Below, one piece after another: positions 2,348 to 8,902 of a DNA stretch of 10,775 nt. The stretch comes from a virus: UHGV virus genome UHGV-1753860; one strand, given 5' to 3'. How positions within the stretch are numbered: the first letter of the stretch is position 1; each line of letters starts with the position of its first letter. Both the position numbers and the translations under genes were made by a program. A model generated the notes under the pieces. The model did not search any database, was not told where the DNA came from, and saw only the letters and a list, made by a program, of their open reading frames with translations.

Positions 2348-2575
2348 ATGACCCTTTATGAAATATTAAAAATTCAATTTAAAACCAATGCCGCTATTGG
2401 TCGCAGGTTCCCAAAGAAAGGAAGGCCTCGTGGCAGTCAAGGTGTTGGAAAGTGGAAAACGCGAGGTGTTCCGGAGGATGTTGCCATTCTTTGTCATCTG
2501 GATCCGAGCATTCCATATACACACCCAAGTCTAGCGAATACAGAAGATGACAAGCCCACAGGAGACCAACAATGA
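2348..2575 (+). CDS. Small basic hypothetical protein (75 aa) in the position where cro is expected; coding status uncertain
   Basis: ORF in supplied track begins 18 nt after the last operator site and its stop overlaps the next start (ATGA at 2572-2575), but the Shine-Dalgarno is weak and I see no recognisable Cro-type HTH. Confidence 0.25.
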   Translation: MTLYEILKIQFKTNAAIGRRFPKKGRPRGSQGVGKWKTRGVPEDVAILCHLDPSIPYTHPSLANTEDDKPTGDQQ

Positions 2576-3279
2576 ACACCGCAATTTTTAACGGCAAAGC
2601 ATCCATGACCAGCGTTGAGATCGCAGAGCTGGTGGGAAGCCGACCAGATAGTGTTAAGAGAACTATTGAAACACTGGCTAAAAAGGGAATCATCCAATTT
2701 CCACAGACTGTGGAAATTGAGAATAAACAATCACTTGGGCCTCGCCGATTTTCTAGCGCGTATGTATTCGAAGGTGAACGAGGTAAGCGCGACAGCATCA
2801 TTGTCGTCGCACAGCTCTGTCCTGAATTCACAGCTCGCCTGGTAGATCGCTGGCGCGAACTGGAAGAACAGATCCGTAAGCCAATGAGCGAAATCGAAAT
2901 GGTTGCCGCGATGGCTCTTGAAGCCGTTCGCCAACAGAAACGGATCACTCAGGTGGAAGAAAAAGTCAGCCACGTTGCTGAAACAGTCGAGCAAATTAAA
3001 AAGGGCACTATTCGTGAGGGCTATGCCGGATATCGCCAACTGAAAGCAAAAACCGGTTTGTCAGATGATAAATGCCGCAATCTGGTGAACGCCTATCAAA
3101 TTCCTACAGACACACATGAGTTCATGACGCCGGACGGATTGTTGTCACGTCGCGCAATTGTTGCTGTGGAACCGTTTATGGCTGCTTTTTATCGGGTTAT
3201 GGAGGAAGCAGAACCGCGAGGGACTCGCTGGTATCACCCGAAAATGGGGTTATTTCAGGTTATTGGTTGGCAGCGGTGA
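2572..3279 (+). CDS. Rha-family (KilA-N clan) phage regulatory / antirepressor-like protein, 235 aa
   Basis: N-terminus NGKASMTSVEIAELVGSRPDSVKRTIETL and downstream RLVDRWRELEEQI fit the Rha-domain pattern as recalled (S.EIAEL.G.RHDNV.R.I, DRW.ELE). Strong AGGAGA Shine-Dalgarno 6 nt before ATG 2572. Confidence 0.75.
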   Translation: MNTAIFNGKASMTSVEIAELVGSRPDSVKRTIETLAKKGIIQFPQTVEIENKQSLGPRRFSSAYVFEGERGKRDSIIVVAQLCPEFTARLVDRWRELEEQIRKPMSEIEMVAAMALEAVRQQKRITQVEEKVSHVAETVEQIKKGTIREGYAGYRQLKAKTGLSDDKCRNLVNAYQIPTDTHEFMTPDGLLSRRAIVAVEPFMAAFYRVMEEAEPRGTRWYHPKMGLFQVIGWQR

Positions 3280-3302
3280 AAAAAAGCCGGGAGTAACCCG
3301 GC
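3279..3302 (-). terminator. Intrinsic (rho-independent) terminator for leftward transcription
   Basis: Plus strand reads A7 (3279-3285), GCCGGG (3286-3291), loop AGTAA, CCCGGC (3297-3302). On the minus strand this is a 6-bp GC stem followed by U7. No U-tract follows on the plus strand, so it is oriented for leftward transcripts and abuts the stop codon of the 2572-3279 gene. Confidence 0.6.
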
Positions 3303-3365
3303 TCACTCAACATCAATAACGGGGAGCTGTTTCGCATAAAACGGCTCCGAAACATCCAAGAACAG
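3279..3365 (-). ncRNA. Candidate leftward small RNA (OOP-like position), about 85 nt, ending at the 3279-3302 terminator
   Basis: Minus-strand promoter-like hexamers TTGAAA (complement of 3395-3400), 18-nt spacer, TATCTT (complement of 3371-3376) would start transcription near 3364; the transcript would contain the 3323-3348 hairpin and end at the U7 terminator. No protein-coding capacity. Hypothetical. Confidence 0.25.
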
Positions 3366-3409
3366 TTCTAAAGATATCAGCAGCTATATGATCATTTCAA
3401 GACCAAATA

Positions 3410-3438
3410 TTGATTCTGCAATTTCGGGACGTTAAACT
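3410..3438 (+). promoter_or_regulatory. Candidate sigma70 promoter of small-RNA module 1
   Basis: TTGATT (3410-3415), 17-nt spacer, TAAACT (3433-3438). The same arrangement recurs at 4066-4094 inside a 62-nt block that is 60/62 identical by hand alignment. Confidence 0.5.
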
Positions 3439-3444
3439 GTCTCT

Positions 3445-3521
3445 GCACCTTATAAAGCGGGTGCCGGGGGTCGCAGCCCGGAATTGTCAACGGCGATATA
3501 TGACGCGCCAGCGTCTTTTTT
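3445..3521 (+). ncRNA. Candidate small RNA 1 (about 77 nt): conserved 5' block, hairpin, single-stranded seed GUCAACGG, intrinsic terminator
   Basis: Predicted start G3445; hairpin CCGGG/CCCGG (3464-3481); seed GTCAACGG (3486-3493); terminator GACGC-GCCA-GCGTC followed by T6 (3502-3521). Seed is perfectly complementary to CCGTTGAC at 3590-3597 and identical to GTCAACGG at 3669-3676, which overlaps the GGAGG ribosome-binding site of the Rha gene at 3688. Confidence 0.5.
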
Positions 3522-3687
3522 ATCGTCCGCGCTCACGCACGCCAGAATTATGGTGGGCTGGGCAGGGGAGCCGAAAGGCTCGCCGGTCTCCGTTGACGCC
3601 GGTACTGCGAACCCTGTTCAGTCTGCCACCAGTGAGTTTCGCAGCTCCGGTGGTGGAAGTTTTTCACTGTCAACGGAGGCTGCCATC

Positions 3688-4050
3688 ATGGCTACTGTCC
3701 TAACTTCCCCATTCCTAAAAATCGAAGTCGTCAACGGCAAGGCCGTTATTTTCTCCCTGCATGTTGCCTGCCATTTCAAGCGCATGCACCAGAACATCGT
3801 TGACAAAATCGAGTATCTGAACTGCTCACGCGAGTTTTTTACCCGCAATTTCATACCGGGTACTTATCACATCTACGGTGACTCCCTGCGTGGTTATTAC
3901 ATCACCCTTGATGGTCTGATGATGCTTCAGCTTGGGTTAAGTCTGCGCACAATGCGGTACTACGAGAGCTGTATTGAAGCATTCCATGAGGCTGAAACCG
4001 TCCAGGGTCACTCCGCGTTCCGTCGTAATCAACGGGAGGTGCACCTATGA
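3688..4050 (+). CDS. Rha-family phage regulatory protein (short, about 120 aa, Rha domain only)
   Basis: MATVLTSPFLKIEVVNGKAVIFSLHVACHFKRMHQNIVDKIEYL fits the Rha N-terminal pattern. ATG 3688 has GGAGG 9 nt upstream. The supplied track extends the frame to a TTG at 3484, but that start has no ribosome-binding site. Confidence 0.75.
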   Translation: MATVLTSPFLKIEVVNGKAVIFSLHVACHFKRMHQNIVDKIEYLNCSREFFTRNFIPGTYHIYGDSLRGYYITLDGLMMLQLGLSLRTMRYYESCIEAFHEAETVQGHSAFRRNQREVHL

Positions 4051-4898
4051 TCCGCCACCAGCATATTGATTCTGCAATTTCGGGACGTTACACTGTCTCC
4101 GCACCTTATAAAGCGGGTGCCGGGCGTGGAAACCCGAAATTCAATATAGAGCACAACCGCGCTCATGCGGTTTTTTCGTGTCATGAGCATCGTTACGCCC
4201 AAATTATGGTGGGACGTGCAGGGCCAACTTCGGTTGGGCCGGGTTCTATGTTGACCGGTATTTCCACCCCTGTACGTCTCACCACCTATATGGTCGTGGA
4301 AAGCCTTGGTGGTGAGTTCATTGAATTCAACATAGGGGCTGTCACCATGACTACTCTCCCAGCCCAATCTCACCCTGAAATCACGATTATCAATGGTCGC
4401 GTTGTCACCACATCTCTTGCAGTAGCTAATTACTTTACTAAACGGCATGAGCGGGTTTTAGATAGAATTAGAAACCTCGAATGTTCCGCTGAATTTACTG
4501 AACACAATTTTGTGTTAAGTGAATACACCGACGCATCAGGCCGCAAACTCCCTTGTTACCAAATCACCCGCGACGGTTTTGCGTTTCTTGCCATGGGCTT
4601 CACTGGTAAACGTGCTGCCCAGTTCAAAGAGGCATACATCAACGCCTTTAACCAGATGGAGAAGAATTTATCTGGTGCTGACGCGGTTGATATGTCAGCT
4701 GTCGCACGAAACGCCAGAGGCGTATACCTGCATTTGCGTGAAATCCATCAAATCTGGACAAGCCAGCTTTATCCAATGCTTAAGGCCGTTGAATCTCCGC
4801 TGGCTAGCAAACTGTACGACCGTGTTGGTGATGCTGTTTTTGGCGCTGCACTTGTTGATTCCAGGCTGAATGGTTCTGACAAGGAGGTTCGCCCATGA
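4047..4898 (+). CDS. Rha-family phage regulatory protein; start ambiguous between ATG 4047 (long, 283 aa) and ATG 4347 (Rha domain at the N-terminus, 183 aa)
   Basis: Rha motif VVTTSLAVANYFTKRHERVLDRIRNLE begins about 10 residues after M4347, which fits the family architecture. ATG 4047 has a strong GGAGG 7 nt upstream and overlaps the previous stop (ATGA), and the frame is open throughout, so a long isoform or coupled leader translation cannot be excluded. The 4047-4346 stretch also holds the small-RNA module 2 signals. Confidence 0.7.
   Translation: MIRHQHIDSAISGRYTVSAPYKAGAGRGNPKFNIEHNRAHAVFSCHEHRYAQIMVGRAGPTSVGPGSMLTGISTPVRLTTYMVVESLGGEFIEFNIGAVTMTTLPAQSHPEITIINGRVVTTSLAVANYFTKRHERVLDRIRNLECSAEFTEHNFVLSEYTDASGRKLPCYQITRDGFAFLAMGFTGKRAAQFKEAYINAFNQMEKNLSGADAVDMSAVARNARGVYLHLREIHQIWTSQLYPMLKAVESPLASKLYDRVGDAVFGAALVDSRLNGSDKEVRP
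4066..4094 (+). promoter_or_regulatory. Candidate sigma70 promoter of small-RNA module 2
   Basis: TTGATT (4066-4071), 17-nt spacer, TACACT (4089-4094); paralogous to 3410-3438. Confidence 0.45.
4101..4176 (+). ncRNA. Candidate small RNA 2 (about 76 nt): same architecture as small RNA 1 but with seed UCAAUAUAG
   Basis: Predicted start G4101; hairpin CGGG/CCCG (4121-4136); seed TCAATATAG (4141-4149); terminator ACCGC-GCTCAT-GCGGT followed by T6 (4156-4176). Seed pairs with CTATGTTGA at 4246-4254 (8 Watson-Crick pairs plus one G-U) and matches TCAACATAG at 4327-4335 next to the ribosome-binding site of the Rha start at 4347. Confidence 0.45.
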
Positions 4899-5089
4899 TT
4901 AGTTACGAAATCATCATCTCCACTACGGAATACAGAAACGATGTATCAGTTCGCACGGATGTATCTGTCTGGCACCGTCGCTATAAATCCAGAAAAACAG
5001 CGGAACTGAAAGCGGCAGAGATGTGTGAAACCATCTCAATGAAAGGTAGCCCGGTTAAATACGTAACTACGGCGGAGGTGCGTCCATGA
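4895..5089 (+). CDS. Hypothetical small protein (64 aa)
   Basis: ATG 4895 overlaps the previous stop (ATGA); GGAGG 7 nt upstream; no recognisable motif. Confidence 0.5.
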   Translation: MISYEIIISTTEYRNDVSVRTDVSVWHRRYKSRKTAELKAAEMCETISMKGSPVKYVTTAEVRP

Positions 5090-5310
5090 TCCGCCACATC
5101 GTTAATTCCCTGTATCACCGATACAACCGTTGCCCCCGTGTGGGGCAGTGGTTCGCCACCAGCAACGGTCACGTTCTGCGGGTTTGCCTAGTCAACGCTG
5201 AAAGCCAGAAAGTCGTGTGCGAACTACAGGGGCGTAGCTACACCATCAGTTACCCTCTGGCGGTATTTCTGTCTGGAAAAATGTTTAAGCGTCTGGGAGG
5301 TGTGGCGTGA
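5086..5310 (+). CDS. Hypothetical small protein (74 aa)
   Basis: ATG 5086 overlaps the previous stop; GGAGG 7 nt upstream; begins MIRH, as does the 4047 ORF. Confidence 0.5.
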   Translation: MIRHIVNSLYHRYNRCPRVGQWFATSNGHVLRVCLVNAESQKVVCELQGRSYTISYPLAVFLSGKMFKRLGGVA

Positions 5311-7505: not shown

Positions 7506-8902
7506 CCAGCCAGAACACCCCGGCATGGCGTAACGATGACCTGGAAGGCGCTGTCATCGGTGCGTTTTTTCTGCGTGGGGCCGATCCGGAAGTGATGGAT
7601 ATTCTGGCCACACTTCCGGCGGATGTATTTTTTGTGCGTCAGTACCGGGATATTTACGCGGGGATTTGCAGACAGGCTCGCATATCCGGCGTCATTGACC
7701 CCGTACTGCTGTGCAATGAGATGCCGGAACTTGCCCCGGTGATTACCGACACCGGACGCAAAACCTGGGTGAAGTCTTCACTGGAGCACTATGTCGCAGC
7801 GTTGCGGCGCAATGCCGCACTGCGCGATGCAGAAAAAACACTGACTGAAGCATTACAGAATTTACGTGATGCGTATACCTGTGAAGCAGCCGAGGATGCC
7901 CTGAAGGATGTGCAGAACATGATGGCCTCACTGTCGACCGGAAAGGGCGTCATTCAGCCGGTTCACATTGATGATGTCCTTCCGGAAGTGGTCGACCGTG
8001 TTGAATGCCGCAATCAGGGACTGGAGAAATCCAGGGCACTGATGACCGGTATTGATGAACTGGACGCAAAAACGGGCGGTATGGAGCCCGGAGACCTGGT
8101 ATTCATTGCCGCCCGTCCTTCGATGGGGAAAACCGAACTTGCGCTGGACATCATCGACAAGGTGACTGAGCAGGGGCATGGCGTGCTTCTGTTCACCATG
8201 GAGATGGCGAACATCCAGATTGGTGAACGTATGGTGTCTGCTGCCGGTGGAATGCCGGTATCCCGTCTTAAGTCTGTTGCCAGTTTTGAAGATGAAGACT
8301 GGGCGCGTTTCTCGCAGGGCGTGGGACGAATGACGGGGCGTAATATCTGGATGGTGGATCAGGCAAACCTGACCATTGATGAGATATGTGCAACCACGAA
8401 GCACCACCGGATGAAACACCCGGAAACGGCGCTGGTGGTGGTCGATTACCTCGGTCTGATTAAAACCCGCAGCACGGGGCGTCACGACCTTGCTGTGGGG
8501 GAAATCTCAAAGGGACTTAAAAGCCTGGCAAAATCCGGCGGTTTCCCGCTGATTGCTCTGAGCCAGCTCTCCCGAGGCGTGGAATCCAGACCCAATAAAC
8601 GTCCCATGAACTCAGACCTGAAAAACTCCGGGGAAATAGAGGCTGATGCCGACATCATTCTGATGCTTTACAGGGATGAGGTGTATAACCCGGATACACA
8701 GGCCAGAGGCATAGCAGAAATCAACATCACGAAACAGCGTAATGGCACACTCGGGACCATTTACCGGCGTTTTCATAACGGACATTTTCTGCCTGTGGAC
8801 CAGGAGAGTGCCCGGGTTCTTTCCACACCCATGACGCCGGGCAATCCGCGCAGATACAGCAATTACCGCATGTCGGGCAGTAAAACGGAGCGTTTATTTT
8901 GA
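7502..8902 (+). CDS. Replicative DNA helicase, DnaB family
   Basis: Walker A GDLVFIAARPSMGKTELAL; Walker B VVVDYLGLI; the hallmark stretch IALSQLSRGVESRPNKRPMNSDLKNSGEIEADADIILMLYRDEVYNP. ATG 7502 overlaps the upstream stop; GGAGG 9 nt upstream. Confidence 0.93.
   Translation: MTSQNTPAWRNDDLEGAVIGAFFLRGADPEVMDILATLPADVFFVRQYRDIYAGICRQARISGVIDPVLLCNEMPELAPVITDTGRKTWVKSSLEHYVAALRRNAALRDAEKTLTEALQNLRDAYTCEAAEDALKDVQNMMASLSTGKGVIQPVHIDDVLPEVVDRVECRNQGLEKSRALMTGIDELDAKTGGMEPGDLVFIAARPSMGKTELALDIIDKVTEQGHGVLLFTMEMANIQIGERMVSAAGGMPVSRLKSVASFEDEDWARFSQGVGRMTGRNIWMVDQANLTIDEICATTKHHRMKHPETALVVVDYLGLIKTRSTGRHDLAVGEISKGLKSLAKSGGFPLIALSQLSRGVESRPNKRPMNSDLKNSGEIEADADIILMLYRDEVYNPDTQARGIAEINITKQRNGTLGTIYRRFHNGHFLPVDQESARVLSTPMTPGNPRRYSNYRMSGSKTERLF

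Follow-up and report, generated by a model that had tools for sequence, protein, structure and literature searches.

Within the 10,775-nt viral DNA UHGV-1753860 (here "the window," meaning the whole stretch analyzed, to which all coordinates refer unless another genome is named), two modules stand in tandem at 3388-4898, each consisting of a leader followed by a gene related to Rha. We consider it probable that each leader is an RNA immunity cassette of the type known from P1 immI and from P4, lying within an open reading frame (ORF) that is kept open for the sake of translation and not for the peptide. This reading is carried by the membership of the leaders in established RNA families, by complementarity and covariation between the RNAs and their targets, by the avoidance of stop codons in homologous leaders, and by the absence of constraint on the encoded amino acids. 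Promoter activity, translation of the frame, and a role in anti-termination or coupling would be expected by analogy with experiments in P4 and Gifsy-1. An initial annotation of the window had taken the leaders to be either dual-function sequence (coding plus structured RNA) or a decaying N-terminal domain. The first of these proposals is supported by two curated RNA families in each copy and a selected open frame, and further by reports that leader homologues are translated in Gifsy-1 (orf45; PMC4825925) and, according to a summary of the P4 work, in P4 (eta/kil; PMC10111431). The second proposal is not supported, and the annotation had missed that the leaders are known isrK and C4 genes and that Pfam (as Phage_ASH) and the P4 literature (as eta) already list their frame.

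Two Rfam families scored above their gathering scores in each copy, isrK (RF01394) and the C4 antisense RNA (RF01695), all on the plus strand. The first copy contains an isrK-type small RNA (sRNA) at 3445..3521 (58.7 bits; gathering score, 50) and a C4 RNA, C4-1, at 3546..3633 (78.8 bits; gathering score, 45); in the second copy, the isrK-type sRNA lies at 4101..4177 (61.6 bits) and C4-2 at 4202..4289 (83 bits). Both C4 matches cover model positions 1-87 of 87. The isrK terminators, at 3502-3515 and 4155-4172 and each followed by a T run, were both recovered by a terminator scan. Each C4 gene carries at its 5' end an AUG (3550 and 4206) that is in the Rha frame and has no clear Shine-Dalgarno (SD) sequence before it, and an equivalent AUG was found in 93 of 95 diverse C4 loci.

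The C4 RNAs have the pairing segments expected of an antisense immunity system. The b' loop of C4-1, CTCCGTTGAC (3588-3597), is a perfect 10-nt complement of the downstream b2 site GTCAACGGAG (3669-3678) and also complements the b1 site GTCAACGG (3486-3493) within isrK. Its a' segment, CTGCGAA (3605-3611), is a perfect 7-nt complement of a2, TTCGCAG (3638-3644), and the corresponding a1 site within isrK is TCGCAG (3471-3476). The downstream targets together occupy 3638..3678, and b2 overlaps the SD of the first Rha-like gene, Rha1 (GGAGG, 3675-3679). For C4-2, the b' loop CTATGTTGA (4246-4254) forms a perfect 9-nt pair with b2, TCAACATAG (4327-4335), which adjoins the SD of the second gene, Rha2 (AGGGG, 4334-4338), and a' (TTTCCAC, 4261-4267) forms a 7-nt pair with a2 (GTGGAAA, 4296-4302; both targets within 4296..4335). 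The matching sites in the second isrK are a1, GTGGAAA (4126-4132), and b1, TCAATATAG (4141-4149), the latter involving one G-U pair. The a' and b' segments and their targets differ between the copies, which makes the pairings copy specific, and from this difference we read C4-1 and C4-2 as two predicted RNA immunity cassettes of different specificities in tandem. By complementarity, each C4 should be able to pair over the ribosome-binding site of its own Rha gene.

Homologous leaders displayed the same covariation. Among 93 of them there were 31 different C4 loops; a perfect complement of at least 8 nt to the loop was present about 35 nt past C4 in 82, and 66 had a complement of at least 7 nt at a constant position within isrK.

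Both cassettes are embedded in a long plus-strand frame that continues into Rha. The module 2 ORF (4047..4898; 283 aa) is intact according to the ORF list and Pfam and combines matches to Phage_ASH (E value, 5.7e-9) and Phage_pRha (2.3e-31). Its ATG at 4047 overlaps the stop codon of module 1 as ATGA, with the SD GGGAGG at 4034-4039, and Rha2 (4347..4898, plus strand; 183 aa) is nested in it as a short product that carries the full Rha domain, as judged from the ORF reading and Pfam. The module 1 ORF (3388..4050, plus strand), which is eta/Ash-like and in frame with Rha1, is interrupted here by a TAA at 3433-3435; the translation of 3436-4050 matches Phage_ASH with an E value of 1.9e-15. Rha1 (3688..4050, plus strand; 120 aa) is a short Rha-like gene nested at the position that kil takes in P4, and its match to Phage_pRha (PF09669) is weak (E value, 3e-6; 28.2 bits, under the cut-off of 29.9). 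Both Rha start codons, at 3688 and 4347, have an SD 8 nt upstream, and the gaps between C4 and the Rha ATG are 54 and 57 nt. No icd ORF lies between C4 and Rha in either gap.

The initial annotation was correct that the Rha frame is open across both leaders: leader 1 is free of stops over 3436-3687, that is, for the 84 codons before the Rha1 ATG at 3688, and leader 2 is free of stops over 4047-4346, before the Rha2 ATG at 4347. The ORF reading of the window gives TAA 3433-3435 as the sole stop in this frame between 3400 and 3690, and none occurs anywhere in 4041-4349. The peptide TVSAPYKAGAG starts at 3436 in copy 1 and at 4092 in copy 2, so that 84 and 85 codons, respectively, lead up to the Rha ATG; the difference of exactly one codon noted earlier corresponds to a single 3-nt indel in the alignment of this stretch. 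The premature stop of copy 1 was likewise traced correctly to one base, with A at 3435 (TAA) where copy 2 has C at 4091 (TAC, 4089-4091).

Taken from the window alone, the case for a maintained frame is weak: the open frames could be chance, and their significance comes only from homologues. When the leaders were shuffled with dinucleotide content preserved, the Rha frame stayed open in 11.5% of cases for leader 1 and in 6.2% for leader 2, and each leader has a second fully open frame, at 3410..3703 (plus strand) in leader 1 and at 4029..4448 (minus strand) in leader 2. We treated these two additional ORFs as chance occurrences, since neither had a match in a Pfam search and the forward alternative frames are shut in most homologous leaders.

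To a pattern-based scan of IMG/VR DNA, which yielded 120 loci, we added the two copies in the window, giving 122 instances with 94 distinct leaders that fell into 38 clusters at 90% identity. The Ash frame was open beyond the leader in 93 of the 94. Over approximately 240 nt, stops in this frame occurred at one position, in one sequence, against 22 distinct positions in each of the other two forward frames, and the mean number of stops per leader was 0.01, against 2.1 and 3.8. The frame also offered about 30% fewer single-substitution routes to a stop (21.5 per leader versus 31). Frequent stops or frameshifts, the outcome that the initial annotation had linked to a chance origin, were not found; the lengths are nearly all equal modulo 3, since the end of TTATGG (which holds the C4 ATG) lies 106, 109, 112, 115, or 118 nt from isrK +1, with a single exception of 119 nt.

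The IMG/VR pattern fixes 21 bases, among them the ATG, and the frame test was therefore repeated with a pattern limited to the 3' half of C4. This second, less biased sample comprised 95 C4 loci from species-representative genomes, confirmed with the covariance model. The Ash frame was open for at least 105 nt upstream and at least 135 nt downstream in 45 of them, compared with 10 and 2 for the other frames; weighted by cluster, the figures were 14.5 of 37 versus 3.8 and 0.4. The long ORF thus recurs, and is selected for, within a large subfamily, without being universal.

These counts bear directly on the proposal that the open frames reflect chance in GC-rich, structured sequence or the decay of an N-terminal domain. 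That proposal can draw on the 6-11% of shuffles that remain open in the window, on the second open frame in each leader, and on the stop in copy 1, but it is contradicted by the stop statistics of the homologues, and the history of the stop itself speaks against decay. At the TAA site, the 122 instances have TAC in 108 cases, TAT in 13, and TAA in 1, which is the window itself. The closest relative of the window, Escherichia coli JKHS016 (99.9% identical), has TAC at the site and an intact 220-codon ORF equivalent to 3388..4050, labeled "ash family protein" by the Prokaryotic Genome Annotation Pipeline (PGAP); the initial annotation had suggested looking for just such an intact copy 1 in relatives. 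The equivalent of 4047..4898 in JKHS016 is labeled as a Rha family protein. The TAC-to-TAA change at 3435 is private to the window, where the long form of copy 1 has been lost, and relatives showed no decay. We regard chance or decay as a very improbable origin of these frames.

A different question is whether the Ash stretch is a genuine folded N-terminal domain of Rha and Eta proteins, with a function of its own, which the RNA genes merely overlap. Such a domain has a curated Pfam family in its favor: the Rha-frame translations of leaders 1 and 2 score 57.7 and 36.8 bits against Phage_ASH (PF10554; cut-off, 26 bits). The module 2 ORF has 2,480 similar database proteins, and nearly all of the best 120 of these 2,480 carry Ash plus Rha; the ORF is maintained in homologues, and P4 Eta has never been given a function. 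The pattern of substitutions, however, is not that of a protein domain. We counted substitutions within clusters of at least 93% identity, and the opening 300 nt of Rha from these sequences served as a control. In the Ash frame of the leader, 23 were synonymous and 58 nonsynonymous, a synonymous share of 28% against 25% expected, whereas in Rha 140 were synonymous and 62 nonsynonymous (69% against 24% expected). This comparison, which the initial annotation had recommended, turned out neutral for the leader and strongly purifying for Rha. Codon-position entropy was flat over the leader, while Rha had its maximum at position 3 and its minimum at position 2. Purifying selection on Ash amino acids was thus not seen in either the synonymous share or a third-position excess, two measures for which the Rha control was positive.

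The leader "peptide" moreover varies in step with the RNA specificity sites. An AlphaFold model built on 25 sequences gave a mean predicted local distance difference test score (pLDDT) of approximately 27 for residues 1-100 and 55-73 for Rha, a weak argument against a folded domain, as the whole model is of low confidence (mean, 46.6). A database protein of 496 aa found on 279 contigs (P0010) is a single ORF that joins two complete Ash-Rha modules. Its second leader departs from the Ash frame in the 5' part of C4 ("NYGG" instead of "IMVG") and afterwards resumes it. The frameshift is thus compensated and leaves the ORF open, which counts against a conserved domain. The founding P4 member of the family is itself a conceptual "cI protein" ORF that lies over an Rfam C4 match, the CI RNA. 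All of this indicates that the PF10554 "domain" in these leaders is a conceptual translation of two RNA genes without constraint at the amino acid level, and a genuine folded domain seems unlikely to us. Because substitutions in the leader are neutral for amino acids while Rha in the same sequences is 69% synonymous, we favor a frame that would be kept for the transit of ribosomes over one that encodes a protein domain.

It might also be argued that only the 3' half of the frame is functionally open, as an upstream ORF (uORF) of the orf45 type that begins at the C4 AUG and joins onto Rha, and that the 5' isrK half and the upstream start persist by descent. Gifsy-1 and N15 work with a stop directly before the C4 AUG (PMC4825925), and the isrK part is just 35 codons long. 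Within that part, however, the Ash frame is free of stops in 88 of 89 leaders, while stops occur at 7 and 9 different positions in the other frames, and where the isrK part varies in length it does so by multiples of 3. An in-frame Met (in a few cases only Val) also occurs no more than about 20 codons upstream of isrK +1 in most of the 38 cluster representatives, and P4 eta likewise starts upstream of its own promoter. We accordingly think it improbable that openness matters in the 3' half only, and prefer the reading in which the whole long frame is maintained for translation. Many database long ORFs, such as those of proteins P0034 and P0005 (383 and 341 aa), run 60-100 codons further upstream, through additional sequence that is not protein-like in appearance and has no Pfam domain on record, which suggests that in some prophages the frame is open even further upstream.

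Each cassette is preceded by a putative constitutive promoter inside the long ORF. In module 1 it would span 3410..3438 (plus strand), with a -35 element TTGATT at 3410-3415, a 17-nt spacer, and a -10 element TAAACT at 3433-3438; in module 2 it would span 4066..4094 (plus strand), with TTGATT at 4066-4071, a 17-nt spacer, and TACACT at 4089-4094. These assignments follow from conservation and from position relative to a known promoter: the promoter sequence is conserved across the 122 instances, with TACACT or TATAGT as the -10 element, the module 1 promoter stands at the position of PisrK in Gifsy-1, and the module 2 promoter aligns with that of module 1. As the initial annotation noted, the base that creates the copy 1 stop also falls in the presumed -10 hexamer (TAAACT versus TACACT, 17 nt past TTGATT); the C-to-A change at 3435 alters the hexamer and leaves its number of consensus matches unchanged.

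The closest parallel to this arrangement is P4 eta/kil. The eta gene is described as containing a constitutive promoter, seqA, and CI, and Kil as its truncated form, in a later summary (PMC10111431, citing Forti et al. 1999, J Bacteriol 181:5225). In the P4 sequence itself, the Ash frame runs without a stop between 8812 and 8168, which gives 197-199 aa from MMM, and the last 65 aa start at "...QEAAIMATTLTPSHPE"; the ORF at 8168..8812 spans isrK (8615-8692) and C4 (8420-8507), and PF10554 matches the conceptual "cI protein" ORF over the C4/CI RNA. Eta and Kil are reportedly 197-199 and 65 aa long. Both systems have a long ORF that begins upstream of the internal promoter, is coupled to the preceding gene by ATGA, and passes through isrK/seqA and C4/CI, and in both PF10554 matches and a short in-frame gene is nested with its own start at "...EAAIMAT...". 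The junctions at the Rha starts of the window, "TEAAIMATV" and "GAVTMTTLPAQSHPE," correspond to the P4 junction "QEAAIMATT" at the start of kil, with "EAAIMAT" in common. This layout is intact in copy 2 of the window (4047-4898), and for copy 1 it is intact in JKHS016 but interrupted in the window. P4 differs in that the nested product is Kil (65 aa; Icd-like), whereas that of the window belongs to the Rha family (PF09669), and in the spacing between isrK and C4, which is 108 nt in P4 and 24 nt in the window. P4 is moreover a satellite, while the window represents the early operon of a lambdoid prophage with two tandem cassettes, the long form of copy 1 being knocked out.

Gifsy-1 offers a second parallel in isrK-orf45-anrP (Hershko-Shalev et al. 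2016, PMC4825925), where isrK and C4-like RNAs are likewise followed by an antirepressor-type gene. There, orf45 is translated and is needed for the translation of anrP, its nucleotide sequence is conserved while its amino acid sequence is not, and in Shigella dysenteriae it is fused to anrP (PMC4825925). The Gifsy-1 uORF starts at the AUG of the C4 5' end, and the window has a homologous in-frame AUG there that may serve as a start ("MVGRMGEPKGSPV" in Gifsy-1 versus "IMVGWAGEPKGSPV" in the window). Unlike the window, where the frame joins onto Rha and upstream reaches beyond the promoter, Gifsy-1 has a stop before the orf45 AUG, and orf45 ends in AUGA at the anrP start. Coupling of a uORF stop to the downstream start through AUGA is not present at Rha in the window, since the frame runs into Rha without a stop. 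On these sequence grounds, 3550-3687 and 4206-4346 are orf45 homologues fused in frame to Rha.

The immI operon of P1 and P7 (c4-icd-ant; also cA-icd-ant in N15) resembles the window in that C4 is processed from the transcript that it represses (a prediction for the window) and in that specificity is set by covariation of loop and target. The P1 record annotates a1/b1, c4, and a2/b2, and b2 covers the ribosome-binding site of the gene that comes next downstream, as in the window. P1 differs in having a separate icd gene ahead of ant and in matching c4-a1b1 (RF03163) where the window has an isrK-type terminator element, which P1 does not have, and its Ash frame is closed within c4. As a separate observation on a related locus, Yersinia phage vB_YpM_39 has a ryfA RNA match of 134.6 bits (149-447 of the locus, minus strand) at about 1 kb from its isrK/C4 cassette.

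By analogy with these systems, we suggest that a weak constitutive promoter, TTGATT-17-TA(A/C)ACT, would start transcripts at about 3444 and about 4100, most of which would end at the isrK terminator and yield a short IsrK-type RNA, while read-through transcripts would carry the C4 RNA. The a' and b' segments of C4 would then pair with a1/b1 in isrK and with a2/b2 over the Rha SD, blocking Rha translation, and in a lysogen the untranslated IsrK and C4 RNAs from the internal promoter would hold Rha off. The predicted long ORF would begin just upstream of the -35 element, with copy 2 coupled to the preceding gene through ATGA, and would cross the promoter, isrK, the terminator, and C4 before entering Rha in frame, which is the eta/kil design. 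Only transcripts begun further upstream, in the early operon, would include its start codon. Ribosomes in the long frame could prevent termination and open the Rha start sealed by C4, and transcription at the time of induction would in this way override the immunity RNA. A role in ribosome transit would explain why stops and frame-breaking indels are avoided while the amino acids drift.

Several observations weigh against this account. The module 1 start, ATG 3388, has no SD and lies 108 nt past the upstream gene, and the window tolerates a stop in the long frame of copy 1. With only 8 of 12 positions agreeing with the consensus, the proposed promoters fall under the threshold of a consensus scan, which missed them. 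That translation of P4 eta prevents termination is known to us through a secondary summary (PMC10111431, citing Forti 1999). P1 and a Yersinia phage have the long ORF closed, the frame is open only from the C4 AUG in N15 and Gifsy-1, and about 60% of divergent lineages are without the long ORF. It is missing in many isrK/C4 loci and is therefore not required for the RNA system to work. We also considered whether the isrK terminator and the long ORF always occur together, and this can be ruled out, because N15, Gifsy-1, and the Yersinia phage have isrK without an ORF through it.

The two modules follow a cro-like gene (2348..2575) and a 235-aa Rha-family gene (2572..3279) in the early operon, which places three Rha-related genes in a row (2572-3279, 3688-4050, and 4347-4898). 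The 235-aa gene and Rha1 score under the Pfam cut-off for Phage_pRha, and Rha2 scores well over it. The gap that separates module 1 from the Rha-family gene before it holds a GC-rich hairpin (3284-3304); on the minus strand this hairpin reads as an intrinsic terminator with a T run, and on the plus strand an A run precedes it.

Cassettes of this kind form tandem arrays of two or three in the window (3388-4898) and at six other loci of our collection (L004, L016, L025, L064, L067, and L086). The array period is mostly 656 nt, with spacings of 863 and 869 nt in two cases, and within each array the copies differ in the C4 b' loop, no specificity being repeated. In a set of 5,426 complete E. coli genomes, the two-cassette stretch is present over at least 80% of its length in approximately 88. 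The junction GGAGGTGC..ATGATCCGCCAC occurs in nearly identical form at 4035-4058 and at 5074-5097 (21 of 24 bases), and both the module 2 long ORF and a 74-aa ORF at 5086..5310 begin with MIRH. The shared junction and the shared MIRH starts suggest that cassettes may be inserted or exchanged by recombination at common linkers made up of an SD and a start codon.

The nature of the Ash frame also has consequences for the use of PF10554 as a marker. A survey of P4-like satellites took PF10554 as the marker of epsilon (PMC8628076). In P4 (8168-8584 and 7888-8175), the epsilon derepression protein is a member of PF25738 and is not hit by PF10554, and the marker probably detects the RNA immunity region instead. 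In P4-like elements, represented by phage P88 (1405-2061 of its locus) and by locus L013 (4260-4877, minus strand), the Ash frame is open for 186-219 codons and wholly overlaps an epsilon-like gene of the Derepression family in another frame; in L013 the stop of the Ash frame overlaps the start of the gene that follows, as ATGA.

The design itself is already known from P4 eta/kil, Gifsy-1 orf45, and P1 c4, and its frame is catalogued as Pfam Ash. Rha/Ash proteins have been noted in Shiga toxin (Stx) phages (PMC8951638), and CI and seqA homologues have been noted inside such genes (PMC10111431). What we add is quantitative evidence that the frame is selected for openness only, the in-frame fusion to Rha in a lambdoid early operon, and the tandem array of differing specificities. 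The biology having been described before, the gain is incremental and lies mainly in annotation and interpretation.

We speculate, tentatively and with some doubt, that the enforced-open, sequence-free frame is a ribosome-driven override switch in the lambdoid early operon and that the tandem C4 specificities amount to a multi-key anti-immunity array. If so, ribosomes on transcripts initiated upstream would unfold the isrK terminator and free the Rha start from the C4 RNA; promoter, terminated sRNA, antisense RNA, and a "spacer" ORF that is functional only by being translated would all be encoded in a single stretch of DNA; and the array, with two or three cassettes in several phages, would yield long and short Rha isoforms under different regulation.

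Labels such as "ash family protein" and "Rha/Ash domain" in Stx and other lambdoid prophages hide an RNA immunity cassette of the P1/P4 type, and a PF10554 match is not to be taken as evidence of a protein function. An ORF that is kept open over the cassette without regard to its peptide occurs here and in approximately 40% of the divergent lineages sampled, and as such it offers what is probably a clear natural case of selection on the act of translation and not on its product.

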